Source of the DNA: Candidatus Methanophaga sp. AG-394-G06
Lineage (GTDB): Archaea; Halobacteriota; Syntropharchaeia; Alkanophagales; Methanospirareceae
Assembly: GCA_009903405.1 (NCBI GenBank)
Contig: PRCZ01000002.1
Coordinates: 912-64,911, forward strand
DNA: 64,000 bases
Direction: 5' to 3'
Shown: piece by piece, positions 4,565 to 54,751 of the stretch
Position numbering within the stretch: position 1 is the first letter of the stretch
How the letters are laid out: each line of letters begins with the position of its first letter
Program-made: the position numbers and the translations under genes
The notes under the pieces: model-generated
What the model saw: only the letters and a program-made list of their open reading frames with translations
Databases searched by the model: none
Told to the model about the DNA's origin: nothing

Positions 4565-4632
4565 TTTTTCTTTTAGCACAGGCTAAATTTTCTTTTTGTA
4601 AAAAAGAAAAAGTGTTGTGTAATCTTGTGGTT
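4565..4632. repeat. Intergenic repeat of about 70 bp with an internal 10-bp hairpin (copy 1 of 2)
   Basis: The sequence TTTTTCTTTTAGCACAGGCTAAATTTTCTTTTTGTAAAAAAGAAAAAGTGTTGTGTAATCTTGTGGTT is nearly identical to 50773-50850. It contains the TTTTCTTTTT/AAAAAGAAAA stem. It lies between two convergent genes. Confidence 0.7.
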
Positions 4633-17188: not shown

Positions 17189-17348
17189 TAGAATCTCCCC
17201 AAAAAGCGGGAAATTTTTGTGCCTGCCGATAATGCAAAATGAAAAGAGCAAAAGTCAAAGTACAACAGATGGCGACAATAAGTGTTTTTGTGGCTGTCTC
17301 ACAATTGATTTTGAATTGTTGGAGAGCCCCTCAAAATCAGTAACAAAA

Positions 17349-37390: not shown

Positions 37391-37450
37391 AAACGCAAGA
37401 TATACGATAGGGATATTGAACTTTGACTTTTGCTCTTTGCATTTTGCATT

Positions 37451-37483
37451 GTCTGCTTAAAAATAGGTGGATTTTTAAGCAGA
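37451..37483. terminator. Perfect 12-bp stem hairpin between the convergent cheR and cheA genes (candidate bidirectional terminator)
   Basis: The sequence is gtctgcttaaaa-ataggtgga-ttttaagcagac. Confidence 0.5.
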
Positions 37484-39049
37484 CACCAACCCACCCACAT
37501 CCAAGATGAGTGCAACCGTGCCATCACCGAGTATTGTAGCACCAGCAAACTCTGTCCTACCTTTGAATCTTAATGGCTTGACTACTATCTCCTGTTGACC
37601 TATGAGTCTACCAACCATAAGCCCAAAGAATTTTTCGGCTCTTTCCACTACCACCACAGGACCTATACGATCTTTGTCCCCTGGTACGTCCAAGAGGTTT
37701 TTCAGTCTCAAGAGTGGCAGAACCCGTTCTCTATACCTAAATATCTCTTTTCCTTCAACACTTTTCAAATCCGTTTCACCAACTGCTACTATTTCACGGA
37801 TTGAATCTAATGGGATGGCATATCTTTCGTCTTCCACACCAACGAGTAATGCTTTAATAATAGCGATAGTCAAAGGCAGATGCAATTCAACGTTTGTACC
37901 TCTGCCTTTTTCTGATTTTATTCTTACGCTTCCACCCAGTGATTTGACCTTTGATGTAACAACATCAAAACCGACACCTCTGCCTGAAATATCAGTGATT
38001 TCTCTCGCCGTGCTCAGCCCGGGCTCACTCAGAAGTTCATAAACATCTGCGTCATTCATGCTCGATGCCTCCTCCTGGGTTATGATTTTCCTTTCCACTG
38101 CTATCTTTTTGAGTTCTTCTATAACTATTCCTCTGCCATCATCTTCAACGGATACAACAACATGGTTCCCTTCTCTTATTGCACTCAATATAACCTTTCC
38201 TTTATCCGTCTTACCAGCCTTCTTTCTATCTTCTGGTTTCTCTATCCCATGATCTACCGCATTACGCAACAGATGCAGTACTGCATCATTTATCTCATCA
38301 AGCACAAGACGATCAAGTTCTATCTCCTTACCAGATACAATAAAATCCAGTTCCTTTCCTGTTTTCTTGCTTAAATCTCGTACTGCTCTTGGAAACTTGT
38401 CAAATAGGTATCCAACAGGGAACATGCGCATCTGCATTACCCGGTCCTGCAATTCTGATGTGCGCCGGTCTATTGTGGCAGTTATCTCATTGAGTTCATG
38501 GCTGGCATATTTTGATGCGATCTGTAGTAGGCTCATCTTTGCTATCGCTAATTCCTCTACAAGATTCTGCAATGCCTGTATCTTTTCTATACTTATCCGT
38601 ATTGATGGACTAACTCTCCCGGCAACCACTCCTTCCGCTGTAACGGTTGGTCGTTCAACATCTTCTTTCTTCTCCGCTGGAATATTTTTCAGTTTTTTAT
38701 GCAATGCAGTAAAATCAAGTTTTACCGTTTTCCCGGTTGCCACACTTTCGACAAGTGTCTCAAGCCCGTCAAGGGATTCGAGCAGAAGATCAACTGTTCC
38801 TTCTTCTGGTTCTCCCCCTTTCCTCAGGACATCAAGCACATTCTCCATCTCATGCGATAGCTCTTCCATATCGGGAAATCCCATTGTGGCTGCCATGCTT
38901 TTCAGTGTGTGTACCGCCCGGAACGTTTCATTTAATGCGTCTGTGTTATCTGATTCTTTCTCCAACGTTAGCAGATTTCTACTTATGCATTGCAGATGCT
39001 CTCTTGACTCGTCTACGAACAGTTCCTTATATTGTGATACGTCAACCAT
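37475..39049 (-). CDS. cheA: Chemotaxis histidine kinase CheA
   Basis: The HPt site is HTLKSMAATMGF. A dimerisation domain, the HATPase (LLRNAVDHGIE, DDGRGI, GRGVGFD) and a CheW-like C-terminus are present. Confidence 0.9.
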   Translation of the reverse strand: MVDVSQYKELFVDESREHLQCISRNLLTLEKESDNTDALNETFRAVHTLKSMAATMGFPDMEELSHEMENVLDVLRKGGEPEEGTVDLLLESLDGLETLVESVATGKTVKLDFTALHKKLKNIPAEKKEDVERPTVTAEGVVAGRVSPSIRISIEKIQALQNLVEELAIAKMSLLQIASKYASHELNEITATIDRRTSELQDRVMQMRMFPVGYLFDKFPRAVRDLSKKTGKELDFIVSGKEIELDRLVLDEINDAVLHLLRNAVDHGIEKPEDRKKAGKTDKGKVILSAIREGNHVVVSVEDDGRGIVIEELKKIAVERKIITQEEASSMNDADVYELLSEPGLSTAREITDISGRGVGFDVVTSKVKSLGGSVRIKSEKGRGTNVELHLPLTIAIIKALLVGVEDERYAIPLDSIREIVAVGETDLKSVEGKEIFRYRERVLPLLRLKNLLDVPGDKDRIGPVVVVERAEKFFGLMVGRLIGQQEIVVKPLRFKGRTEFAGATILGDGTVALILDVGGLVSA

Positions 39050-39111
39050 TAATTTATTGTAATCATCATTTAATTTATTCTTTTCCCGCTTTTTATTATC
39101 TCATTTTGTCC

Positions 39112-39264
39112 TCATTTCATTGCGCATTTCTTCGGCTGAGACGCTATTACATCATCCAGATAGCAATCCTCACACAGCTTAAGACCTCCGAACTCGTAAA
39201 CATCTCCGGATATTGGCTTGCCACATTTCTCGCATTTTATGTTTGTCTTAACGCTCTTTTCCAT
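39112..39264 (-). CDS. Zinc-finger miniprotein (50 aa)
   Basis: The sequence MEKSVKTNIKCEKCGKPISGDVYEFGGLKLCEDCYLDDV is below the ORF-track cutoff. It is co-directional with the downstream LC module. Confidence 0.4.
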   Translation of the reverse strand: MEKSVKTNIKCEKCGKPISGDVYEFGGLKLCEDCYLDDVIASQPKKCAMK

Positions 39265-39435
39265 TTTTAACGTTTAGTTATGGAACTATTCCAATCGCTC
39301 CTCGCGGGCAAGTCATCATGCAGTTAGTGCAACAGATGCCTGCCAGGCTAATAATGGCGATGATTGTTGCATAGCGCTCTAAACTAAAAAATAAAAAAAG
39401 GACAGAGTTATCTCCTCCTTTTCCTCTACCTACTT

Positions 39436-39603
39436 CTACTTGCAAAAGGCACAACTGTCATCGGAAGCGCCGATACTGCAGCTCATGCGGTTTTCAGCGT
39501 ATAGTTTTGACCCGCACTTCTGACAAACCATAATGCGTCCAAGTTCTTTGTGGTCCGCTTCCATTCTACTCCCTTCATTTCCACACAATTCGCATTTACC
39601 CAT
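39436..39603 (-). CDS. Double CxxC zinc-ribbon miniprotein (55 aa)
   Basis: The sequence reads MGKCELCGNEGS...VCQKCGSK...CAFCK. A truncated paralogue lies at 52966-53004. Confidence 0.45.
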   Translation of the reverse strand: MGKCELCGNEGSRMEADHKELGRIMVCQKCGSKLYAENRMSCSIGASDDSCAFCK

Positions 39604-39642
39604 TTTGTTCTCTTCCTGCTTCTAATTAACCCTCTCTACTCT

Positions 39643-39960
39643 TTACTTTCTCAGTTCTTCCAGTCTCTTCTTTATCTGCTCTAACTGGTCCCCAAGCATC
39701 TGTGCCTGCGATTCGAGCATAGAAATCTCCTGCTCTTTCGGCACTGCTGCCATGCCCATTGGTGCAACCGGTGCAACTGCTGGTGCTTGCTGCTGTATCC
39801 AAGAAGCAAACTGCGGCATCTGTCCTGTCTGTGTGAGATACTGTGCACCCGGCGGCATTCCCGTTGGGCTTCTTCCTACCCAACCCGGAGAGTATCCAAA
39901 TCGCATCCAGCCGGGTAAACCAGTCAGATAATACATGTTTCTCCTTCCATATCCACCCAT
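39643..39960 (-). CDS. Low-complexity Gly/Tyr/Trp/Pro/Met-rich protein (105 aa) with a C-terminal coiled-coil tail (copy A)
   Basis: The N-terminus reads MGGYGRRNMYYLTGLPGWMRFGYSPGW and the C-terminus reads EQEISMLESQAQMLGDQLEQIKKRLEELRK. Positions 39640-39942 are 100% identical to 53040-53342. Confidence 0.55.
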   Translation of the reverse strand: MGGYGRRNMYYLTGLPGWMRFGYSPGWVGRSPTGMPPGAQYLTQTGQMPQFASWIQQQAPAVAPVAPMGMAAVPKEQEISMLESQAQMLGDQLEQIKKRLEELRK

Positions 39961-39987
39961 TTTTTTCTTATTGCCTCCTAAATTCTT

Positions 39988-40191
39988 TTACGGTCTTGTC
40001 ATTTTAGATCCGCATTTTGGGCAGGTCTGCTGATAGCATGGTACCCCCGTTGGATGCGGCATTGTATAGCCACAATTTGGGCATCGACATTCTCCGCTGG
40101 GGCCCAATCCGCTGCCACCCATTCTCCCTCGCCCTTGACCTCCTCGTCCTACTCCTTGACCCCTTCCGCCTCCTCTACCCATACCACTCAT
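39988..40191 (-). CDS. RGG-box plus zinc-ribbon miniprotein (67 aa, copy A)
   Basis: The N-terminal box MSGMGRGGGRGQGVGRGGQGRGRMGG is followed by CRCPNCG...CPKCGSK. Confidence 0.55.
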   Translation of the reverse strand: MSGMGRGGGRGQGVGRGGQGRGRMGGSGLGPSGECRCPNCGYTMPHPTGVPCYQQTCPKCGSKMTRP

Positions 40192-40192
40192 C

Positions 40193-40417
40193 TTATCTTA
40201 TCCCCCTCCCATAAGAATAGGGATAGCCATAATATGGCATTGGGTATATCCCTGGAGCTGGAGCTATTGCTCCATACATTCCTGTCCACCACCTTCTGGG
40301 AAGCCACGGGAAATTCCTGCAGCATGGATAAGGGTTGCCCATTCCCATACCTCTTCCTGGTCCAAAACCAGACCAAAAACCTCTTCCAAATCCTCTTCCT
40401 CTTGCCATTTTTTTCAC
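40193..40417 (-). CDS. Arg/Gly/aromatic-rich low-complexity protein (74 aa; present only in copy A)
   Basis: The sequence MKKMARGRGFGRGFWSGFGPGRGMGMGNPYPCC...YPMPYYGYPYSYGRG is wedged between the NifX-like gene and the 67-aa gene. Confidence 0.4.
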   Translation of the reverse strand: MKKMARGRGFGRGFWSGFGPGRGMGMGNPYPCCRNFPWLPRRWWTGMYGAIAPAPGIYPMPYYGYPYSYGRGIR

Positions 40418-41028
40418 CCCCTTTTAAGTTCTTCCATTCTCTTCTTCACTTCTTCCAAATCTTTCGCCAGTCTATTTGCCATGTTCGATAGTTCTTCGAT
40501 TTCTTCTTCTTTCGTTCGAGGCGTTATTGGTGCCTGCGGCGCTTGTGGTTGTGGTTGCGAAGGCACCGTTTGCTGCATGCCAAGTCCCATGCCTCTGCCC
40601 ATGCCTTGCCCTCTACCGCCGCCTCGTCCTCCACCCATGCCAAATCCGCCACCTGGAGCAATAGCACCCATACCTGCATGAGCAGAAACTGTCGAACCCT
40701 CCGTCTCGTTAAGTCCACCGGTTTTATACATTTCAACAGCTTCTTGAACCGTGCCATAGGCGCCAGTTGCAATTTTCACACCCGCCGTGGAAAGCACCTG
40801 AAAGGCATTGGGGCCTATATTCCCTGATATAACTACATTCACCCCTTTATTCACAACGGCTTGTGCTGCTTGAATCCCTGCTCCTCCCGGTGCGGTAATG
40901 GCTTCGTTTGCCATCGCTTCGAACGCCATCGTATCTGAATCAACGAACACAAAGTATTGGCACCTTCCAAACCTCGGGTCTACCTGCGCATTCCGGTCTC
41001 CCGCTGTTGCGGTTACGCATATCTTCAT
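40414..41028 (-). CDS. NifX/NafY-family (dinitrogenase FeMo-cofactor-binding fold) domain protein with a Met/Gly/Arg-rich linker and a coiled-coil tail (copy A)
   Basis: The domain is indicated by MKICVTATAG..VDPRFGRCQYFVFVD...AITAPGGAGIQAAQAVVNKGVNVVISGNIGPNAF. The linker reads GMGGGRGGGRGQGMGRGMGLGM and the tail reads KEEEIEELSNMANRLAKDLEEVKKRMEELKRG. Confidence 0.8.
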   Translation of the reverse strand: MKICVTATAGDRNAQVDPRFGRCQYFVFVDSDTMAFEAMANEAITAPGGAGIQAAQAVVNKGVNVVISGNIGPNAFQVLSTAGVKIATGAYGTVQEAVEMYKTGGLNETEGSTVSAHAGMGAIAPGGGFGMGGGRGGGRGQGMGRGMGLGMQQTVPSQPQPQAPQAPITPRTKEEEIEELSNMANRLAKDLEEVKKRMEELKRG

Positions 41029-41067
41029 CTTTCATCTTCTCCCTTTTTGTTTTTTTTCTTCCACATG

Positions 41068-41081
41068 TGAATATATATTCA
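41068..41081. promoter_or_regulatory. Perfect palindrome TGAATATATATTCA upstream of NifX-like operon A (candidate operator and TATA-overlapping site)
   Basis: The identical 14-mer recurs at 54298-54311 and 54738-54751. Confidence 0.5.
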
Positions 41082-41097
41082 TATGAGTATGTAAATG

Positions 41098-41946
41098 TTA
41101 CTTCTTCTCTTCTTTACCTTCCACAAATGCCTGCACATTTTCCACTATCTGCCCAAATGCGTCTTTTACTTTCGATTCCTTTTGCATGACAAATGGCGTT
41201 CCGCTATCCGCAGCTTCTACCATCTGCGGGTCTAACGGCACTCTTCCAAGAAAAGGCACTCCTAACTCCGCCGCTGCCCTTTCTCCGCCTCCATATTTGA
41301 AGATATTTGTCGCTTTCCCACAGTATGGACACACAAACCCACTCATGTTCTCTATTATCCCTATAACCGGCACCTTCAGCACCCCTGAGAAGTTTACTGC
41401 CTTTCTTGAATCTAACAATGCTAAATCCTGCGGTGTTGTAACAATTATCGCGCCATCTACATTCTTTATCAACTGCGCAACACTGAGTGGCTCGTCGCCC
41501 GTCCCCGGCGGAAGGTCAACAATCATATAGTCCAGCTCACCCCAATCAACATCTGAAAGGAATTGCCTTATCGCATTCATCTTCATCGGTCCTCGCCAGA
41601 TGATCGGGGAATCTCTATCTGGTAACAGAAAACCTATGGACATCGCTTTTAGCCGTGGTGTGACTAAAATAGGCGACATTTTCCCCCCTGATGTCTCTGG
41701 CCGCTTGTCCTCTATCCCCAATATCTTTGGAATATCCGGCCCGTGTATATCAGCATCCATCAAACCCACGTCTAAACCGCTCATAGCGAGAGCAAAAGCA
41801 AGATTTGCTGCTACCGTTGTTTTCCCTACACCCCCTTTTCCACTCATCACCATTACCTTATGCTTTACCTTTCTCATGCTTGTATCAACTGCTTCCGCTT
41901 CTTCTTTCATCCCTCTTTTCCTTTCTTCCTCTTCTCCTTCATCCAT
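41098..41946 (-). CDS. apbC: Mrp/ApbC/NBP35-family Fe-S cluster carrier ATPase
   Basis: The P-loop is [10 protein letters not shown], and the C-terminal CPYCG motif is present. Confidence 0.85.
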
Positions 41947-42056
41947 ATTTTATTTATCACCCCTAACAAACCATAAACTCATAAAATTACCGCTTTCTAG
42001 CCTTATAGCTTTCCGTTCAACAAAAGCTTCCGCTATATATTCACACTATTTAGTGA

Positions 42057-47370: not shown

Positions 47371-48129
47371 TTATTTTCTTTCGTTTATTATTTTTGGACA
47401 AACATCTTTAATAGGACATTCATCACACTTTGGATCAGTAGGACGACACCATCCCTTTTCCATTCCTATATCCCATATTGGAAAATCCAATTCACCGGGA
47501 TCCTCGGGATTTAATTCTCTTGCACTTTGAAGTATCGTATTTTTATCATCTGTTTTCGCTAAACCCGTTCTTAAAAAGACCCGTTTAACATGTATATCAA
47601 ATGAAATGTTACTTTCACTTTTATCGCCTACTCCCTTCCTTAAAACACGAATAAGTATATTCGTTGCCATTGATGCTTTTTTCTGCCCGATACCTTTGAA
47701 TAATTCAAATCTCCGTTGCAAATCAGCATATCCAGGGTTACCATTCCAAATGTTTGCTGCGTTTCCCTCATATCTATCTATTAACATTTTACACGCATCT
47801 TTTATATATGCTGCATACTTATTGGGAAATCGGTGCAGTTTTGGTGCTTCATTAAAAATGACTTTTAGTTCATCGTCTTTCATTTCAGAAATCTTTTTAA
47901 CATCGAGATGTCCAAGTCTCTGTTTCAAAATAAAAGGTTTTTCCCACGCCTGTTCCGCAGTTATACTTTGATCAAATATCACACCGAAAAGAAATGCATT
48001 TGGGTCATCTACCAGCAATTTATTTACCTCGGGATTCAGCGTTGGTTCAAATTTTGTCACTTTCAACGTCCGACCGTATTCGAGGATCTTATTTACTACT
48101 TTTTGTTTTTCTTCCATAGTCTGTATCAC
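47371..48129 (-). CDS. HhH-GPD-superfamily DNA glycosylase (endonuclease III-like) with a C-terminal [4Fe-4S] cluster loop
   Basis: The HhH motif is GIGQKKASMATNIL. The Cys loop is WCRPTDPKCDECPIKDVCPK (Cx6Cx2Cx5C). Confidence 0.6.
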   Translation of the reverse strand: MIQTMEEKQKVVNKILEYGRTLKVTKFEPTLNPEVNKLLVDDPNAFLFGVIFDQSITAEQAWEKPFILKQRLGHLDVKKISEMKDDELKVIFNEAPKLHRFPNKYAAYIKDACKMLIDRYEGNAANIWNGNPGYADLQRRFELFKGIGQKKASMATNILIRVLRKGVGDKSESNISFDIHVKRVFLRTGLAKTDDKNTILQSARELNPEDPGELDFPIWDIGMEKGWCRPTDPKCDECPIKDVCPKIINERK

Positions 48130-48135
48130 TAACTA

Positions 48136-48783
48136 TTATTTCCTTGCGTACCATAGGTTCGCTACATAAACCAATAGAGGTATAATGGCAAAATCTACAC
48201 TATATCCCAACAGATTTTCCGCTGTTTTGGAGGTAGTAACTATTCCAATTAGTACGATTAATACCGCTGCAAACCCTATGAAAGCAGAATAAACAATTTT
48301 AGCTCTTTCTGTTAATTTGTACATCCCGTAAAGAGTATAGAAATATGTTACAACCATTATCAAGTATGAAACGACTATTGCACTCATAAAAGAACTGGGA
48401 GACTTTTCACTTCCGACAATACCACCAATTACGAATAAAAGGGCCAAAAATCCAAAGATGCCATTTAGCACCATCAAAACTTTTCGCAATCTGATTTTTG
48501 GCACTAATGTTGACAGATCTGGACTAATCAGTTTGTATCCGGTGTAAATGATAATTATAGATGCGATAATTGCAAGGATAAGTCATATTCCTATATTTGC
48601 CCCTGCTAATGCTCCAAATGGATCTCCTTCAAGTTCACTTTCCATTTGGCGGATAGCATAAGAAACAGCGAGTAAGCTCGTTACACTGAAAATAGCCATA
48701 AGTGCACCAACACCGATTAATCCTTTTGCTTTTGTACTTGGTTTTGACATCCAAGAGATTCCAAATGCCGCTAAAGCCAACAA
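48136..48783 (-). pseudogene. Membrane protein interrupted by a single in-frame TGA (48583-48585)
   Basis: The sequence ...ALAGANIGI is followed by TGA and then LILAIIASIIIIYTGYKLISPDLSTLVPKIRLRK in the same frame. Both halves are TM-rich. Confidence 0.4.
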
Positions 48784-48818
48784 GAAATAAATGGTACCAA
48801 AATAGGTACCACTATAAG

Positions 48819-49106
48819 TTAGCTATAGAACGCATTTATATCTTTTGTAATTCCAAGAATTTGCACTGTCACCCAAGGAAGGAACGATGCTATAATTGCA
48901 AGGGCTGGACCAATGAACAGAGTTATGTCAAATTTCTTCATAACCAATTTCAAATCAGCTTTTTTCTCCTCTTCAAAAAGTTCACACACACAATCTTTAC
49001 AATAATTTTTGCCTTCAATATTCACTCTACACTCAGCGCAGATAGCTTTACCACAATTGGCGCAAACTCCTATCGCCTCGCGTTCGAGATGTTTTTCACA
49101 TTTCAT
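48819..49106 (-). CDS. B-box-like zinc-finger protein with a C-terminal TM segment
   Basis: The Cys/His cluster reads MKCEKHLEREAIGVCANCGKAICAECR...CKDCV and is followed by a hydrophobic helix. Confidence 0.45.
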   Translation of the reverse strand: MKCEKHLEREAIGVCANCGKAICAECRVNIEGKNYCKDCVCELFEEEKKADLKLVMKKFDITLFIGPALAIIASFLPWVTVQILGITKDINAFYS

Positions 49107-49222
49107 TTTTTACAGACGGGCATTTCCTTTTTAAGTCACTATACTTAAGCACGACCGCCGATAACTTAAACTACCCTATTAGCATAGGTATGACCTAGGA
49201 TTATAAAAGCTTTCCGATTTTT

Positions 49223-49760
49223 TTATTTTTGATCTTTCCCTCCAAAAAGTTTGTTATAAAGCGATGTGTACCTGTGCGCTTTAAGTTTCTCCTTTTCTTC
49301 AGCTATCACAGGAGCAGTATCTGTCTTCTCGTAACCCTTCTGCCCCGATATATACCTCTCTACCACTTCCCAGCCATGCCCTACTGAGCCATGATAACAA
49401 GAAGGCGCCCACAGATGACTCGGGCACCACTCCTTAAGCTGCGGGAATCGATCCCTCAACAGCTTACTACTTCTACCCTTTATCCGCTTCGCTATCCAGC
49501 TTACCGAATACTTCGGTGGACTGCGAAGCATTTCTGTGAAACATTTTTGATAAAACTTTTCTTAAATGTTTTGTAAACGCTTTTTCTAAAAGGGTTTTTA
49601 TGAACAAAGGTACATGATCCACATTCATTGCCATGTCTATAATCGCAATATCAAGCTCTTTGCAGGTTTCCCTGAGAATTTCTCCCGCCACCTCTGCAAC
49701 ATCCCCGAGCTATACCTTCCAGCGATATTTCAGTGAAAAACAGGAATTTCATCCCGGTAA
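49223..49760 (-). mobile_element. tnpA: Degraded IS200/IS605-family tnpA (Y1 HuH transposase) with frameshifts
   Basis: The 102-aa ORF reads SPPKYSVSWIAKRIKGRSSKLLRDRFPQLKE...HLWAPSCYHGSVGHGWEVVERYI, which matches the TnpA C-terminal half. The overlapping 72-aa ORF in another frame has DIAIIDMAMNVDHVPLF, corresponding to the HuH region. Confidence 0.6.
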
Positions 49761-49824
49761 AGTTTTCAAACAGAGCAGGGAGCAGGGAGATCAAATACAA
49801 CATTCAATTTGTAATTCATTCATA

Positions 49825-50691
49825 CTAATTTATACCATCCCACACCACCTTTATCGCATCCGATACCACCCCTTCTGCGAATTCAACCACCGGCATACCC
49901 GCAACCATCGCTTCAGTGACCACGGAGTCGTATGGTATGTTGCCAACAACTTGTATTCCTCGCTGTCTGCAAAACTCGGTAATCCTCTTGCTGTTCTCTT
50001 CATTAATGTCGTATTTATTGATGCAGACGGCGGAAGCAATACCGAAATGTCTGGTCACATCCATGATTCGTTCGAGGTCATGCAGTCCGGACATCGTGGG
50101 CTCGGTAACGATGAGCGCAAGGTCCACACCGGCCAATGACGCAATTACAGGGCAGCCGATGCCCGGCGATCCGTCAATCAGAATGAGTTCACAGCCCTCT
50201 TTTTCTGCAACCTGCTGTGCATTGTTTCTAACAACAGTGACCAGTTTTCCTGATGCCTCTTCCGCGATATTGAGCTGCGCATGCACCATTGTGCCATAGT
50301 TAGTCTTTGATATAAATGCATAGCCCGAGACACGTTCTTTCAGCGTAACCGCTTCCTGTGGACACGTAAACACACAAGCGCCACAGCCCTCACAACGTGC
50401 GGGATTGACTGCATAGCCTGATTCTTCGGTCGAAGCAATAGCGTTGAATCGACATGTTTCTTCGCACGTTCCACACTCGGAGCATAGCGTTTTATCTATA
50501 ACGGCAACTTTCACGCCTTTAAACTCCTCCTTCTTTATGATTTCCGGATGTAGCAGCAGATGGAGGTCTGGTGCGTCTACATCGCAGTCTACAATGACTT
50601 TGTTCTCTACAAGGGCCGCGAACGAGCCCACAAGGGTTGTCTTCCCCGTGCCACCTTTTCCACTAATAACCGTTATTTGTTTCATTTGCAT
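49825..50691 (-). CDS. MinD/ParA-family P-loop ATPase with an inserted 2x[4Fe-4S] ferredoxin domain (COG1149, CooC-like)
   Basis: The P-loop is ISGKGGTGKTT. Two CxxCxxCxxxCP clusters are present. Confidence 0.8.
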   Translation of the reverse strand: MQMKQITVISGKGGTGKTTLVGSFAALVENKVIVDCDVDAPDLHLLLHPEIIKKEEFKGVKVAVIDKTLCSECGTCEETCRFNAIASTEESGYAVNPARCEGCGACVFTCPQEAVTLKERVSGYAFISKTNYGTMVHAQLNIAEEASGKLVTVVRNNAQQVAEKEGCELILIDGSPGIGCPVIASLAGVDLALIVTEPTMSGLHDLERIMDVTRHFGIASAVCINKYDINEENSKRITEFCRQRGIQVVGNIPYDSVVTEAMVAGMPVVEFAEGVVSDAIKVVWDGIN

Positions 50692-50772
50692 ATACCTTTT
50701 ATAATCACAAGATTACACACATTTTTACAAAAACCCTTTTCTTAGAAAGAAAAGCTGTACCAAAAGAACTAT

Positions 50773-50850
50773 TTTTTCTTTTAGCACAGGCTAAATTTTC
50801 TTTTTTAAAAAAGAAAAAGTGTTGTGTAAATCTTGTGTAATCTCGTGGTT
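50773..50850. repeat. Intergenic repeat of about 70 bp, copy 2 (see 4565-4632)
   Basis: It is nearly identical to copy 1. It has an extra GTGTAATCT duplication at the 3' end and lies between the two MinD-ferredoxin genes. Confidence 0.7.
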
Positions 50851-51703
50851 ATAATAGAACTTTATCAATTATCCCTGCAAATCGCTCCTTCCACTCCGGC
50901 ATCGCCTTCACAAAGGGCACGCCCTCAGAATAGTAACGTGCAATCCGCGTGTCATGTGGAATCTCAAGCAAAATCGGAATCCCTTCCTTCTCGCAGTACT
51001 CATACACCTTTCGATCCCCAATCCCTGCTTTATTTATAACCATGCCAAAAGGAATCTTAAGCACTCTGAGCACCTCAACTGCAAGCCTCAAATCGTAGAG
51101 CCCAAACGGGGTGGGCTCAGTCACAAGAATGCAGTAATCGCTTCCTTGCACGGCTGCAATCACCGGGCATGCCGTTCCCGGTGATACATCAATAATCACT
51201 GTCTTTTCCGGATCAAGGTCCGCTTTTACCTGGTCGATCAGCGGTGTTGCCATTATCTCCCCGATATTCAACACCCCGTACACGAGGTCAACGTTGCCGT
51301 CACCGCTTTTTCCTGTTTTTATAACGCCGATCTCCCTCGGTTCCTCGCTGATCGCATCCTGCGGGCATACTAAGGAACATAACCCACAGCCGTGGCAAAG
51401 TTCCGGAAACAGCATTACTTCTTTTTGTGGCACCGCAACAAGAGCGTTGTATTCACACGCCGCAGCACACTTACCGCAGTAATCACACAAATCGTAATTG
51501 ACCCTTGGCACCAGCGTATACGCCGGCTTTATCTCCTCGATCACCGGATTAAGGAAGATATGTGAATTTGGCTCTTCTACATCGCAATCCATTAATTGTA
51601 CGTTCGAAAGCGACAGAGCCAGATTAACAGCTACGGTTGTCTTTCCCGTACCGCCTTTGCCGCTTGCTACCGCAATAATCATCGGTTCACCGTTTTGTTG
51701 CAT
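50849..51703 (-). CDS. MinD/ParA-family ATPase with an inserted ferredoxin domain, second paralogue
   Basis: The P-loop is ASGKGGTGKTT and Cys clusters include CDYCGKCAAAC and CHGCGLCSLVCP. The start was set at the internal Met to avoid the overlap. Confidence 0.8.
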   Translation of the reverse strand: MQQNGEPMIIAVASGKGGTGKTTVAVNLALSLSNVQLMDCDVEEPNSHIFLNPVIEEIKPAYTLVPRVNYDLCDYCGKCAAACEYNALVAVPQKEVMLFPELCHGCGLCSLVCPQDAISEEPREIGVIKTGKSGDGNVDLVYGVLNIGEIMATPLIDQVKADLDPEKTVIIDVSPGTACPVIAAVQGSDYCILVTEPTPFGLYDLRLAVEVLRVLKIPFGMVINKAGIGDRKVYEYCEKEGIPILLEIPHDTRIARYYSEGVPFVKAMPEWKERFAGIIDKVLL

Positions 51704-51714
51704 TGTGCGTCCCA

Positions 51715-52074
51715 TTAATGCCGGTGCATTTTGCACGCATTGGCATCACTAGCTTCGTTGAGTCTCCCTGCCTGAAAAGCGCTTATTGCTTCGCTTACCG
51801 TACCACTGGCGCCTACATACACCTCTATCCCCAACTGTTCAAACGCGCTTATTGCACGAGGGCCTAATCCGGAACAGAGCATTATCTCTGCACCCGCACC
51901 TGCTACGAGATCCGGTGTATTGCCTACACCGCCAAAATGTTCACCCGTGTTCTGCACAATTTCCACCTTGTTACTCACCATATCCACAACAGTAAATGTT
52001 GGTGCTCTTCCAAAATGCTCACTTACAAGATCTTCCAATCCTCCATTTCCCAATGAGGGAATGCATAGTTTCAT
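51715..52074 (-). CDS. NifX/NafY-family domain protein (stand-alone, 119 aa)
   Basis: The sequence reads MKLCIPS.........HFGRAPTFTVVD...GVGNTPDLVAGAGAEIMLCSGLGPRAISAF. Confidence 0.75.
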   Translation of the reverse strand: MKLCIPSLGNGGLEDLVSEHFGRAPTFTVVDMVSNKVEIVQNTGEHFGGVGNTPDLVAGAGAEIMLCSGLGPRAISAFEQLGIEVYVGASGTVSEAISAFQAGRLNEASDANACKMHRH

Positions 52075-52078
52075 ATGT

Positions 52079-52570
52079 TCATCTCCTCTCTTTTTTATTC
52101 CTCTTTTTATTCCTATTCTTATTCTTACTCTTATAATCTTCCAGAGCTGCTCTTAGCGTGTCCATTGCAAGCACAGAGCAATGAATGTTTTCTTCCGGTA
52201 AACCACCCAAAACGGATAAAACGTCCTTGCCCTCTACCGTGAGTGCTTCTTCGATTGTCTTACCTTTCACCAGTTCTGTAACCACGCTTCCACATGCCAT
52301 TGAAGCACCACAACCATCGGTTATGAATTTGCAATCTACGATTTTATTCTCTTCAACTTTAATATGCATCTGCAGTGTGTCTCCGCAGGGGCCGGTTACT
52401 CTGGCAGCACCACTGGGGGCTTCCAGTTCACCAACGTTTTTTGGGTTGTATGCCGCCTCAAGTGTCTTCTCAGTGTATATTCCCCTTTCCTCTTCTAATA
52501 TTTCCTCTTCCATCTTCTTGGTTAGTTCATCGAAATCGGAAGTTTCATTTTTTTCGGTTATTTTTTCCAT
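52079..52570 (-). CDS. IscU/NifU-N-like Fe-S scaffold protein with an acidic N-terminus and a polybasic C-terminal tail
   Basis: The conserved ligands are GPCGD, DGCGAS and HCS. The tail reads KSKNKNRNKKRNKKERR. Confidence 0.7.
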   Translation of the reverse strand: MEKITEKNETSDFDELTKKMEEEILEEERGIYTEKTLEAAYNPKNVGELEAPSGAARVTGPCGDTLQMHIKVEENKIVDCKFITDGCGASMACGSVVTELVKGKTIEEALTVEGKDVLSVLGGLPEENIHCSVLAMDTLRAALEDYKSKNKNRNKKRNKKERR

Positions 52571-52619
52571 TTTACCTGCATTTCATCACGCATTTTTTAA
52601 CGTTTAAATATTTACACAC

Positions 52620-52931
52620 TTATAGCTCTTCGATACTTCTTTCCATCTCTTCAACTTTGGACCTTACGACGTTTAATTGCGTTTTTAGCCTCTCTAGTAC
52701 TGGATCTCTCTGCAAAATTGGAGATGAATGTGGGGCTATTTGGATGGCACCCTTTGGACAAGCCCGTACACAAGCAGTGCAGCAGATACACCTGTTAAAA
52801 TCCACTACTGCTTTTTTATCAACAATTCCAATCGCACCGGTACAGCAAACCGCGGTGCACTTTCCACACCCTACGCATAGTTCTTCGTTAACAAAAGCTT
52901 TCCAAGCTAATGATTGTATAGATTGCTGCAT
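52620..52931 (-). CDS. 2x[4Fe-4S] ferredoxin with a C-terminal coiled-coil tail
   Basis: The clusters are [11 protein letters not shown] and [12 protein letters not shown]. The tail reads [25 protein letters not shown]. Confidence 0.75.
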
Positions 52932-52965
52932 AGCACACTAAAAAAGAAAAAGGAGCAAGAAAGAG

Positions 52966-53004
52966 CTATCTTCTCGCTTTTCCACACAGTTCGCATTTAC
53001 CCAT
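52966..53004 (-). pseudogene. Truncated copy of the 55-aa zinc-ribbon gene (12 codons, MGKCELCGKARR-stop) at the edge of duplication B
   Basis: It is homologous to the start of the 39436-39603 gene. Confidence 0.4.
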
Positions 53005-53043
53005 TCCCTTCTCCTCATGTTTCTAATTGGCCCTTTCCACTCT

Positions 53044-53361
53044 TTACTTTCTCAGTTCTTCCAGTCTCTTCTTTATCTGCTCTAACTGGTCCCCAAGCAT
53101 CTGTGCCTGCGATTCGAGCATAGAAATCTCCTGCTCTTTCGGCACTGCTGCCATGCCCATTGGTGCAACCGGTGCAACTGCTGGTGCTTGCTGCTGTATC
53201 CAAGAAGCAAACTGCGGCATCTGTCCTGTCTGTGTGAGATACTGTGCACCCGGCGGCATTCCCGTTGGGCTTCTTCCTACCCAACCCGGAGAGTATCCAA
53301 ATCGCATCCAGCCGGGTAAACCAGTCAGATAATACATGTTTCTGTGTCTATTTCCTCCCAT
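53044..53361 (-). CDS. Low-complexity Gly/Tyr/Trp/Pro/Met-rich protein (105 aa) with a coiled-coil tail (copy B)
   Basis: It differs from copy A only at residues 4-7. Positions 53040-53342 are 100% identical to 39640-39942. Confidence 0.55.
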   Translation of the reverse strand: MGGNRHRNMYYLTGLPGWMRFGYSPGWVGRSPTGMPPGAQYLTQTGQMPQFASWIQQQAPAVAPVAPMGMAAVPKEQEISMLESQAQMLGDQLEQIKKRLEELRK

Positions 53362-53388
53362 TTTTTTCTTATCGCCTCCTAATTTTTT

Positions 53389-53592
53389 TTATGGTCTCGC
53401 CATTTTAGACCCGCATTTTGGGCAGCTCTGCTGATAGCATGGCACCCCCGTTTGATGCGACATTGTATAGCCACAATTCGGGCATCGACAATCTCCGGCA
53501 GGACCCAATCCGCTGCCACCCATTCTCCCTTGCCCTTGACCTCCTCGTCCTATTCCTTGACCTCTTCCTCCTCCTCTACCCATGCCACTCAT
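53389..53592 (-). CDS. RGG-box plus zinc-ribbon miniprotein (67 aa, copy B)
   Basis: The sequence reads MSGMGRGGGRGQGIGRGGQGQGRMGG...CRCPNCG...CPKCGSK. It is identical to copy A at 62 of 67 residues. Confidence 0.55.
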   Translation of the reverse strand: MSGMGRGGGRGQGIGRGGQGQGRMGGSGLGPAGDCRCPNCGYTMSHQTGVPCYQQSCPKCGSKMARP

Positions 53593-53603
53593 CTTATTTT
53601 ACG

Positions 53604-54248
53604 TCACCTCTTTTTAAGTTCTTCTAGCCTCTTCTTCACTTCTTCCAAATCTTTCACCAGTCTATTAGCCATGTTCGATAGGTCTTCGATTTCTTCTTCT
53701 TTCGTTCGAGGCTTTATTGGTGCCTGCGGCGCTTGTGGTTGCGAAGGCAGTGGTTGCTGCATGCCAAGTCCCATACCTCTGCCCATACCTCTGCCCATGC
53801 CTTGCCCTCTACCGCCGCCTCGTCCTCCGCCCATGCCCATACCCATGCTCGTGCCCATGCCAAATCCGCCACCCGGTGCAGTAGCGCCCATACCAGCATG
53901 AGCAGCTACTGTTGAAGTACCTGTCTCACCTAACTTACCGCCTTTATACATCTCAACAGCTTCTTGTACCGTGCCATAAGCGCCTGTTCCAATTTTCACA
54001 CCAGCGGTGGACAACACTTGAAAAGCATTGGGACCTATATTCCCCGAAATGACTACATTCACACCTTTATTCACCATTGTTTGTGCCGCCTGAATTCCCG
54101 CTCCACCCGGTGCGGCAATCGCTTCGTTCGCCATCGCTTCAAATGCCATTGTCTCCGAATCTACGATTACAAAGTATTGGCACCTTCCAAACCTCGGGTC
54201 TACCTGTGCATTCAGGTCTCCTGCCGTTGCGGTTACGCATATCTTCAT
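53604..54248 (-). CDS. NifX/NafY-family domain protein with a Met/Gly/Arg-rich linker and a coiled-coil tail (copy B)
   Basis: The domain is the same as in copy A. The linker is longer (GMGTSMGMGMGGGRGGGRGQGMGRGMGRGMGLGM) and the tail reads KEEEIEDLSNMANRLVKDLEEVKKRLEELKKR. Confidence 0.8.
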   Translation of the reverse strand: MKICVTATAGDLNAQVDPRFGRCQYFVIVDSETMAFEAMANEAIAAPGGAGIQAAQTMVNKGVNVVISGNIGPNAFQVLSTAGVKIGTGAYGTVQEAVEMYKGGKLGETGTSTVAAHAGMGATAPGGGFGMGTSMGMGMGGGRGGGRGQGMGRGMGRGMGLGMQQPLPSQPQAPQAPIKPRTKEEEIEDLSNMANRLVKDLEEVKKRLEELKKR

Positions 54249-54297
54249 CTTTATCTTTCACCTTCTTCCTATAGATTTTGATTTTTTCTTCTTTATG

Positions 54298-54311
54298 TGA
54301 ATATATATTCA
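54298..54311. promoter_or_regulatory. Palindrome TGAATATATATTCA upstream of operon B, with a TATA-like TATATAAA at 54318-54325
   Basis: On the coding strand the order is TTTATATA, 6 nt, palindrome, about 45 nt, ATG. Confidence 0.5.
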
Positions 54312-54332
54312 TATGAGTATATAAATGATAGA

Positions 54333-54734
54333 CTATGATGAAACCAAAGGATCTCCACCACGCCCATGTCTCCCTCTTTTCCAGTCAGGAGACAGTTTCG
54401 AAAGGGGCACATGCGTTTCATTGTTAGCACTCAATATTACATAATTACCGCCTTCTATTCTTATTGCTTTCCCTTCAACAAAAGCTTCTGCTATCTTCCG
54501 ATGTGCTTCGCTTACTATTCGATGGAATGTAGGTTGCGAAACGCCCATTTTTTTCGCTGCTTCTTCCTGACTTAGCCGCTGATAGTCTTTAAGCCTTATG
54601 CTCTCCAGTTCTTCCACTTTCAATATCAATCTTTCATAGACCTCAGGATTAGGCGTTCTTTCACCTCGTCGTGGCTCGAAGAGGAGGAAATTTGGCTTGA
54701 CGCTTACGCACCTGCACAGTCTTCGCCCTGGCAT
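54333..54734 (-). CDS. DUF134 (UPF0251) predicted DNA-binding protein
   Basis: The N-terminus is MPGRRLCRCVSVKP. The sigma-70 region-4-like HTH reads LSQEEAAKKMGVSQPTFHRIV, followed by GKAIRIEGG. The start was set at MPGRR rather than the upstream ATG that lies inside the palindrome. Confidence 0.75.
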   Translation of the reverse strand: MPGRRLCRCVSVKPNFLLFEPRRGERTPNPEVYERLILKVEELESIRLKDYQRLSQEEAAKKMGVSQPTFHRIVSEAHRKIAEAFVEGKAIRIEGGNYVILSANNETHVPLSKLSPDWKRGRHGRGGDPLVSS

Positions 54735-54737
54735 ATA

Positions 54738-54751
54738 TGAATATATATTCA
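54738..54751. promoter_or_regulatory. Third copy of the palindrome TGAATATATATTCA, 3 nt upstream of the DUF134 start codon
   Basis: The site is seen directly in the sequence. Autoregulation is inference. Confidence 0.5.

Follow-up and report, generated by a model that had tools for sequence, protein, structure and literature searches.

Probable recent gene conversion between two copies of an anciently duplicated DUF5320/NifX-type gene module in an ANME-1 archaeon

Gene conversion between paralogues is known for mtrA, a gene duplicated in methanogens (PMC4632066), and cases of long-lasting concerted evolution in prokaryotes have been surveyed (PMC6053082). Here we describe a case found in a 64,000-nt stretch of DNA (the window, whose numbering is used for all positions) from Candidatus Methanophaga sp. 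AG-394-G06, an uncultured methane-oxidising archaeon of the ANME-1 group (Methanophagales). The window contains two paralogous copies of a gene module in direct orientation, 13.4 kb apart: copy A at 39578-41097 and copy B at 52979-54327, both on the minus strand, as are all the genes discussed. As in the known cases, a short tract of low divergence lies within an old duplication, the tract groups with its donor, the donor is unchanged, and the process recurs in relatives. On the other hand, the genes involved here are uncharacterised, of the DUF5320 and NifX types, and belong to uncultured ANME-1; the copies have been homogenised in patches and recently, rather than over a long time; and converted and unconverted haplotypes were both captured in near-identical strains. 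The locus is a well-resolved new instance of a known process, i.e., interparalogue gene conversion, and not a new kind of process.

The gene content of the module recalls two other described systems. One is IssA of Pyrococcus furiosus (PF2025), which combines an IPR003731 domain with a cationic tail rich in glycine and aromatic residues and functions in thioferrate storage (PMC5524996). The other is the ORP cluster of Desulfovibrio, where MrpORP delivers iron-sulfur (Fe-S) clusters to Orp3 and Orp4 (PMC6345978).

The paralogy of the two copies, claimed in an earlier note made from the bare sequence of the window, was confirmed by BLASTN and by a base-by-base pairwise comparison. Positions 39578-40200 and 52979-53601 align over 623 nt without gaps at 93.6% identity, and 40414-41097 aligns with 53604-54327 at 81.9% identity with 17 gap openings. 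At a constant offset of 13401, the comparison revealed an exact run of 305 bp (39638-39942 = 53039-53343), the second-longest exact run being only 27 bp. The earlier note had reported this block as 303 bp; the block is indeed present, but its true length is 305 bp and the copy-B coordinates had been shifted by one. As the note also said, it covers almost all of a gene for a protein of 105 residues (d105), from codon 7 to codon 105 and the stop codon, and it extends 5 nt beyond. The proteins d105A and d105B differ only at residues 4-6 (YGR versus NRH). Around the block the identity falls to 82-89%: the 258 nt on the upstream side have 29 mismatches and the 60 nt on the downstream side have 11, so that 305 bp without a single difference contrast with 40 differences in 318 flanking bp. 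When 40 differences were placed at random in 623 nt (n = 200,000), the longest run had a mean of 63 and a maximum of 196, and none reached 305. Unconverted relatives have 16-18 paralogue differences per 305; at this rate, a block with zero differences has a probability of approx. 1e-8.

The comparison with relatives relied on several sets of loci. A scan of a genome collection with the 105-residue protein gave 80 loci, nearly all from ANME-1/Methanophagales and related archaea (best locus, 96% protein identity), and many metagenome-assembled genomes carry two or three copies of the module. The closest other species is represented by MAG172, with L009 as its A locus and L001 as its B locus; the corresponding loci of GLR107 are L012 (A) and L005 (B). 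Further assemblies of the module were found by exact-product lookups: PRCY01000001.1 (NCBI) has L082 and L088 on one 101-kb contig, ERZ23497743 (ENA) has L081 and L087 on separate scaffolds, and L085 is a contig from Logan SRR6663356. L094 is DAOWOQ010000065.1. The exact-product lookup with d105B gave no match. Since gene callers begin d105B at internal methionines (97 or 71 residues), we located the B loci by way of two neighbouring genes, NifX119 and ferredoxin. A metagenome scan with a B-specific 27-mer at the d105B start retrieved only L097, a more divergent unconverted B locus, and added no same-lineage haplotypes to those already known.

The synonymous divergence (dS) between the copies differs strongly along the module. 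The NifX paralogues have a dS of 0.44 in the window and 0.47 in MAG172, and those of zn67, a small zinc-ribbon gene, 0.25-0.35; the d105 paralogues show 0.02 in the window, 0.20 in MAG172 (21/318 nt) and 0.34 in GLR107 (28/318 nt). Between orthologues dS is 0.03-0.17 overall, and for NifX it is 0.03-0.10 between the window and MAG172. Because the NifX paralogues are well above the orthologues in dS, and because A-type and B-type loci both occur across ANME-1, these divergences show that the duplication is old and took place before several ANME-1 species separated. Paralogous modules were also compared within twelve other ANME-1 genomes (15 pairs); their aligned segments were 73-95% identical, and the longest exact run was at most 128 nt.

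The block of the window shows no differences over its 305 positions from the A loci L081-L085, and 15-23/305 from B loci. When 123 diagnostic sites were painted as A-type or B-type, copy B of the window and L087 were B-type except for four isolated A-type sites and the run inside the block; in copy B of the window this run comprises seven consecutive A-type sites, bounded by 19 B-type sites on one side and 18 on the other. Therefore, the tract groups with the A lineage and its flanks with the B lineage, i.e., the two are phylogenetically incongruent. The exchange was not reciprocal, since the block of copy A is the same as that of the A loci of other strains (L081-L085) and copy A contains no B-type sites. 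Both ends of the tract fall in regions of dense divergence: codons 4-6 have six differences within 13 nt, and the 60 nt that follow the stop codon have 11. Such a position would be expected if strand exchange depends on homology.

The recent state of copy B before this change is probably represented by L094. Compared with window positions 47715-53354, L094 has 23 mismatches, 18 of them inside 53095-53323; the remaining five, in the 5.3 kb of B flank, are single-nucleotide polymorphisms (SNPs) that are also present in L087 or L088. Its block is B-type, with 5 differences from the B orthologue of MAG172 and 18/305 from the window. Taken together, these comparisons indicate that a recent, non-reciprocal ectopic gene conversion from A to B, superimposed on the old duplication, very probably occurred in the lineage of the window. 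Homologous recombination would have written 229-305 bp of copy-A d105 over copy-B d105, removing approx. 18 A/B differences. The event was probably intragenomic, and the converted state appears to be polymorphic among near-identical strains of the population. Among the alternatives that the earlier note had offered, recent gene conversion over an older duplication is thus the one favoured by the divergence of the orthologues, by the L094 allele and by dS.

Several explanations compete with this one. The copies could have remained identical since the duplication, without any conversion, under extreme purifying selection at the nucleotide level (e.g., an overlapping RNA element or codon constraint). 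The d105 protein is strongly conserved (dN/dS approx. 0.1-0.2, dN being the nonsynonymous divergence), and its paralogues are less diverged than their neighbours in other genomes as well. Nevertheless, the A/B pairs of MAG172 and GLR107 are clearly diverged, and their 21 and 28 differences in 318 nt lie chiefly at third codon positions; the near-identical strain L094 has 18 differences in the block; and the complete conservation of the block among A loci belongs to a generally identical 1-kb region (39000-39999) and is not specific to the block. A special nucleotide conservation among A loci, considered on account of the 0/305 differences in L083 and L084, was rejected for the same reason, given that the whole of 39000-39999 is near-identical there. 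Purifying selection alone, which the earlier note had left as an option, is therefore rejected, since the paralogue differences of the relatives are mostly synonymous and their d105 dS of 0.20-0.34 compares with 0.02 in the window; we regard it as scarcely credible. An artefact, in which truly different paralogues were made identical by the assembler or by a consensus step, is suggested by the fact that an exact repeat of 305 bp exceeds typical short-read k-mers, that the identity was seen in assembled contigs, and that the re-assembly L094 has a different sequence at the block. However, the same A=B block is found in PRCY01000001.1 (L082/L088) and in ERZ23497743 (L081/L087), and L085 is 100% identical to copy A of the window; divergence from the window in the flanks of these assemblies amounts to 0.16-0.7%. 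Since three assemblies with different flank SNPs all show this block, it is unlikely to be a one-off product of assembly or polishing. In ERZ23497743 the A and B copies even stand on different scaffolds, where both are bordered on either side by unique sequence; the edges of the block are sharp, and it matches exactly the A haplotype at the A loci of other samples (L083, L084). Repeat collapse, moreover, usually breaks contigs rather than rewriting one copy, and an artefact of either kind seems highly improbable.

The remaining alternatives accept recombination but alter its timing or its donor. If L094 were the derived state, the common ancestor would have had identical copies, and the B block of L094 would have been replaced by the B-type allele of a different ANME-1 strain. 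This is compatible with the flanks of L094, which join SNPs seen separately in L087 and L088 and suggest recombination within the population, and with the fact that ANME-1 populations with diverged B alleles share seep metagenomes. The variants at 53006 and 52965, present in all other B lineages, are missing from L094, and therefore any switch to foreign sequence would have to fall within 53007-53094. Such an import would need one end in this interval and another near 53343, almost exactly the limits of the A/B identity; it would still need an earlier conversion to account for A=B, so that it alters the timing only, and it is less parsimonious. We consider it very unlikely. The same interval is shorter than k=141 (a value seen as k141 in the contig names of sibling CSMAG assemblies), which counts against a simple chimeric path for L094. 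It is also conceivable, though unlikely, that the B locus recombined with A-locus DNA from another cell of the same population: the donor sequence is common to the A loci of several strains, and so the source cell is not identifiable. The simplest donor is nonetheless the resident A copy, which lies in direct orientation on the same chromosome at a distance of 13.4 kb and has 0/305 differences. Some points weigh against an intragenomic A-to-B conversion as described here. The identity of the block was established on assembled contigs, and some of the supporting assemblies may come from overlapping samples or read sets. In L094 just 11 nt of upstream flank separate the block from the end of the contig, and nowhere are metagenome assemblies less reliable than at contig ends. 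The reverse history, in which L094 re-acquired a B-type block, is an alternative, albeit the less parsimonious one, and intragenomic conversion is indistinguishable from recombination with the A locus of another cell, which gives the same product.

The same painting of diagnostic sites showed other exchanges between the two module types in relatives. In the A locus of GLR107 (L012, approx. 782-1309, equivalent to window 41035-40435), NifX is B-type over approx. 600 bp between A-type flanks, and the NifX paralogues of this genome have a dS of 0.08, in contrast with 0.44-0.47 elsewhere. Judged from this mosaic, the NifX of L012 is the product of an independent conversion in the opposite direction, from B to A. 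The B locus L007 has an A-type patch that spans the 3' end of zn67 and the 5' part of d105 (39999-39871 in the A coordinates of the window). This patch explains why its N-terminus is the A-type MGGYGRR in a B-type context, and it is, on this pattern, another independent conversion. We infer that the event in the window belongs to a series of patchy conversions among the ANME-1 modules, a process that continues in the clade.

Two further patterns were observed among the strains. In the unconverted strain, L094 and L100 combine flank SNPs of which each is private to one of the two converted assemblies, L087 or L088 (window 50451-51706), which hints at recombination among strains of the population. 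Over 39000-41000, L083 and L084 hardly differ from the window except in 40000-40400 (zn67A/orf74), where 26-27 differences are packed together; this could be a hypervariable region coding for glycine and arginine, or another recombination patch.

According to tblastn searches with the proteins of the window, the module is present at many ANME-1 loci and a few from other archaea, several of which have only part of it, and the order of its components is: candidate operator, DUF134, Mrp, candidate operator, NifX::DUF5320, orf74, zn67, d105, zn55, ferredoxin, zn50, NifU, NifX and two MinD-type 4Fe-4S ATPases. Each copy in the window contains a different part of this set. Copy A has a DUF134 relic, Mrp, NifXA, orf74, zn67A, d105A, zn55, a ferredoxin relic and zn50, in that order, and copy B has DUF134, NifXB, zn67B, d105B, a truncated zn55, ferredoxin, NifU and NifX. 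The coordinates are collected in Table 1.

Table 1. Features of the two modules and of the identical block, in window coordinates
Feature	Position	Strand	Remarks
Ferredoxin relic	39281..39372	-	Copy A, inside 58-residue open reading frame 39278-39454; tblastn 63% identity, E=4e-4
zn55, intact 55-residue zinc-ribbon gene	39436..39603	-	Copy A; downstream of d105 in many ANME-1 loci
Donor side of block	39638..39942	-	Copy A; 0/305 versus A-locus alleles L081-L085
d105A, 105-residue DUF5320-type protein	39643..39960	-	Pfam PF17253, homologue alignment, AlphaFold2
zn67A, 67 residues, Gly/Arg-rich N-terminus and C4 zinc ribbon	39988..40191	-	
orf74, 74 residues, cationic, aromatic, Gly/Pro-rich, no acidic residues	40193..40417	-	Copy A only
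NifXA, IPR003731/PF02579 (NifX/ORP/IssA-type), Gly/Arg/Met-rich tract and DUF5320 zipper	40414..41028	-	
TGAATATATATTCA upstream of NifXA	41068..41081	.	Candidate operator overlapping TATA-like element
Mrp/NBP35 Fe-S carrier ATPase, CPYC motif	41098..41946	-	Copy A only; PF10609 E=5e-101
DUF134 3'-part relic (IAEAFVERKAIRLESGNF)	41974..42036	-	Copy A; tblastn E=1e-4
Two CbiA/MinD-type ATPases with inserted 2x[4Fe-4S] (Orp3/Orp4-like)	49825-50691, 50849-51736	-	Pfam CbiA/ParA and Fer4
Stand-alone second NifX/ORP-type protein	51715-52074	-	PF02579; continues copy-B operon
NifU/IscU-type scaffold	52079-52570	-	TIGR03419 E=6e-38; continues copy-B operon
fer103, 2x[4Fe-4S] ferredoxin with C-terminal zipper	52620..52931	-	Pfam Fer4 families
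Truncated zn55 (MGKCELCGKARR-stop)	52966..53004	-	Copy B; nucleotide homology between copies stops at 52979
Putative converted tract, recipient copy B	53039..53343 (maximum); 53095-53323 (minimum)	-	Minimum with L094 as pre-conversion allele
d105B, paralogue of d105A	53044..53361	-	Differs only at residues 4-6
zn67B, paralogue of zn67A	53389..53592	-	88% amino acid identity, dS 0.25
NifXB, paralogue of NifXA	53604..54248	-	89% amino acid identity, dS 0.44
TGAATATATATTCA upstream of NifXB	54298..54311	.	
DUF134 (UPF0251) helix-turn-helix	54333..54752	-	Intact in copy B only; PF02001 E=5e-26, and Sigma70_r4/HTH matches
TGAATATATATTCA upstream of DUF134	54738..54751	.	Ends 4 nt before gene-caller ATG at 54734

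Three statements of the earlier note on the gene content held. The NifX-like proteins, said to differ by 10-15%, have 204 and 214 residues and are 89.1% identical; the 74-residue open reading frame is confined to copy A, where positions 40201-40413 are replaced by 2 nt in copy B; and copy B contains a truncated zinc-ribbon gene, ATGGGTAAATGCGAACTGTGTGGAAAAGCGAGAAGATAG at 53004-52966, which reads MGKCELCGKARR-stop. As for the limits of the duplication, the paralogy runs further than the note had said, in the form of relics of DUF134 (41974-42036) and ferredoxin (39281-39372) in copy A. The DUF134 relic is 88% identical in nucleotides to 54443-54494 (codons 87-103 of the intact gene) and is joined directly to half of the palindrome found upstream of DUF134 (GTGTGAATATATA), which implies an internal deletion of approx. 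260 nt. What remains in the ferredoxin relic corresponds to residues 1-14 and 49-67 of the protein from copy B, and a deletion has removed one of the two cluster motifs. These relics show directly that the duplicated unit was larger than previously described. B-type loci of relatives (L004, L006, L089-L092 and L095) have orthologues of orf74, and therefore copy B lost this gene by deletion. The comparison shows a complementary loss, in which A lost DUF134 and ferredoxin, and B lost Mrp, orf74 and most of zn55. A conversion directed from A to B and repeated in the clade, and an originally larger unit with complementary losses, are supported as refinements of the earlier note.

Other features were observed between or near the modules. 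A Y1 (IS200/IS605-type) transposase at 49223-49691, between the two modules, is apparently split into open reading frames of 72 and 102 residues; L089, L091 and L092 have no transposase at this place and carry tetrapyrrole genes (TP_methylase, HEM4) instead. A direct repeat of 46 nt, 91% identical, occurs at 4565-4610 and 50773-50818, the latter between the two MinD-Fer4 genes. An inverted repeat of 41 nt, 90% complementary, has its arms 20 kb apart at 17225-17265 and 37416-37456.

Another aspect of the module is the 14-nt palindrome TGAATATATATTCA, which occurs 3 times in the window versus 0.01 expected. Two of these sites (41068-41081 and 54298-54311) are located approx. 40-50 nt upstream of the NifX genes. 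The exact palindrome was found in 59 of 96 related loci, upstream of a NifX-like gene and often of DUF134, and the corresponding positions were confirmed in loci compared using tblastn coordinates, e.g., L001, L004, L009, L010 and L013. Variants of the form TGAATA-N2-TATTCA are present in loci of Syntrophoarchaeum, Argoarchaeum, ANME-2 and Hadarchaeota. From this distribution, the palindrome is a good candidate for the operator of the DUF134 helix-turn-helix protein, which is likely the regulator of the module. A shared operator would explain how copy A lost DUF134 and yet stays regulated.

The d105 protein is only partly covered by known families. Its C-terminal helix matches positions 44-99 of the Pfam DUF5320 profile (PF17253), with 25.8 bits for d105A and 26.9 bits for d105B, just below the gathering threshold of 27; the tails of NifXA and NifXB, which match positions 20-99, pass it with 33.9 and 32.5 bits. 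Among the clusters of d105 homologues (n=716), many have a precomputed PF17253 match, and some are named by NCBI as DUF5320 domain-containing protein. In contrast, the N-terminal part of the profile has no counterpart in the first half of d105 (RNMYYLTGLPGWMRFGYSPGW...). An alignment of 38 homologues revealed three parts: a conserved N-terminal motif of aromatic residues, glycine and proline; a variable Pro/Ala linker; and a conserved C-terminal helix. The invariant residues are Y10, T13, P16, W18, R20, G22, S24, G26, W27, G34, P36 and Y41. AlphaFold2, run with the 38 homologues, predicted a helix at 75-104 with a predicted local distance difference test (pLDDT) score of 61. A sequence search of the PDB with d105 gave nothing significant, and NCBIfam has no model for d105, zn67, orf74 or zn50. 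Literature searches on DUF5320 and DUF134/UPF0251 found no functional studies; the apparent matches to DUF134 were actually DUF134x numbers.

The C-termini of d105A, NifXA and fer103 (39643-39735, 40414-40506 and 52620-52712) each form a predicted helix of approx. 25 residues with the same 3-4-3-4-3-4-3 spacing of hydrophobic positions. Read from the sequences, these heptad residues are I79, L82, A86, L89, L93, I96, L100 and L103 in d105; I177, L180, A184, L187, L191, V194, M198 and L201 in NifXA; and L79, L82, L86, V89, V93, M96, I100 and L103 in the ferredoxin. We infer that this shared leucine zipper may bring d105, NifX and the ferredoxin together.

The likeness to IssA lies in two places. 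The PF02579 (Nitro_FeMo-Co) domain was detected in NifXA (E=7e-25) and NifXB (E=4e-25), followed, as in IssA, by a long Gly-rich cationic tract; the top PDB matches of NifXA are 2WFB (ORP, Desulfovibrio) and 1EO1 (MTH1175, E=6e-18), and MTH1175 serves as the structural template of the IssA type in the IssA paper (PMC5524996). In addition, orf74 has nearly the same composition as the IssA tail: its 74 residues include 16 Gly, 16 aromatic, 11 cationic, 10 Pro and no acidic residues, with an isoelectric point (pI) of 10.5, whereas the tail has 70 residues with 15 Gly, 14 aromatic, 7 cationic and 11 Pro, and a pI of 10.7 (PMC5524996). Two other segments, the zn67 N-terminus and the first half of d105, are also cationic and lack acidic residues. 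Nevertheless, the tails of the NifX proteins differ from that of IssA in that they are rich in Gly, Arg and Met, poor in aromatic residues, and end in an acidic/basic leucine zipper (DUF5320); tract 110-160 of NifXA has 19 Gly, a pI of 11.7 and one aromatic residue before the zipper. The composition typical of the IssA tail is found here on separate small proteins.

The ORP cluster has in common with the module an ORP-type PF02579 protein, for which 2WFB was the top PDB match, two MinD/CbiA ATPases with 2x[4Fe-4S] that correspond to Orp3 and Orp4, and an Mrp/NBP35 carrier that is closest to the NCBIfam model MrpORP (NF041136). However, Mrp, a P-loop ATPase of the NUBPL/Mrp type, lacks the fused Di-Nase domain of MrpORP, and it scores 376 bits against a cutoff of 450, its match being limited to model positions 1-256; here the Di-Nase domain has genes of its own, the NifX genes. 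The archaeal cluster has no sigma-54 activator such as that of Desulfovibrio but the DUF134 helix-turn-helix gene and the palindrome instead, and it adds DUF5320, zinc-ribbon, ferredoxin and NifU genes.

It is possible, and we suggest it tentatively, that the module makes an ORP/IssA-like assembly for the trafficking or storage of iron-sulfur. The shared C-terminal leucine zipper would join the NifX-type domains, the ferredoxin and d105; the cationic peptides rich in Gly and aromatic residues (orf74, and the N-termini of zn67 and d105) would bind anionic Fe-S species; and the single remaining DUF134 would act in trans on the conserved palindrome and so control both modules. This proposal is weakened by the score of d105 just under the Pfam DUF5320 cutoff, by the scarcity of aromatic residues in the NifX tails compared with the IssA tail, by the low AlphaFold2 confidence for d105 (pLDDT 61), and by the fact that function was deduced from sequence. 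A bolder version, which seems unlikely, is that ANME-1 and other anaerobic archaea have an undescribed multi-protein assembly for Fe-S storage or delivery that would be zipped together by DUF5320 and controlled by DUF134 as its dedicated repressor. In such an assembly, free peptides resembling the IssA tail (orf74, and the N-termini of zn67 and d105) would coat anionic Fe-S polymers, and the DUF134 repressor would bind the widely conserved TGAATA-N2-TATTCA operator. If this were true, conversion of d105 and NifX between modules would be favoured because the parts of both must co-assemble.

Exact repeats as long as this block can break or confuse metagenome assemblies, and for the DUF5320 and NifX/IssA-like families, these genomes will yield mosaic gene trees. 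For the biology of the uncultured ANME-1 archaea, the case is evidence that homologous recombination between paralogues is active. The comparison further brought to light an uncharacterised and widely conserved cluster related to Fe-S, with a candidate DUF134 operator, and these are more promising leads than the conversion itself.

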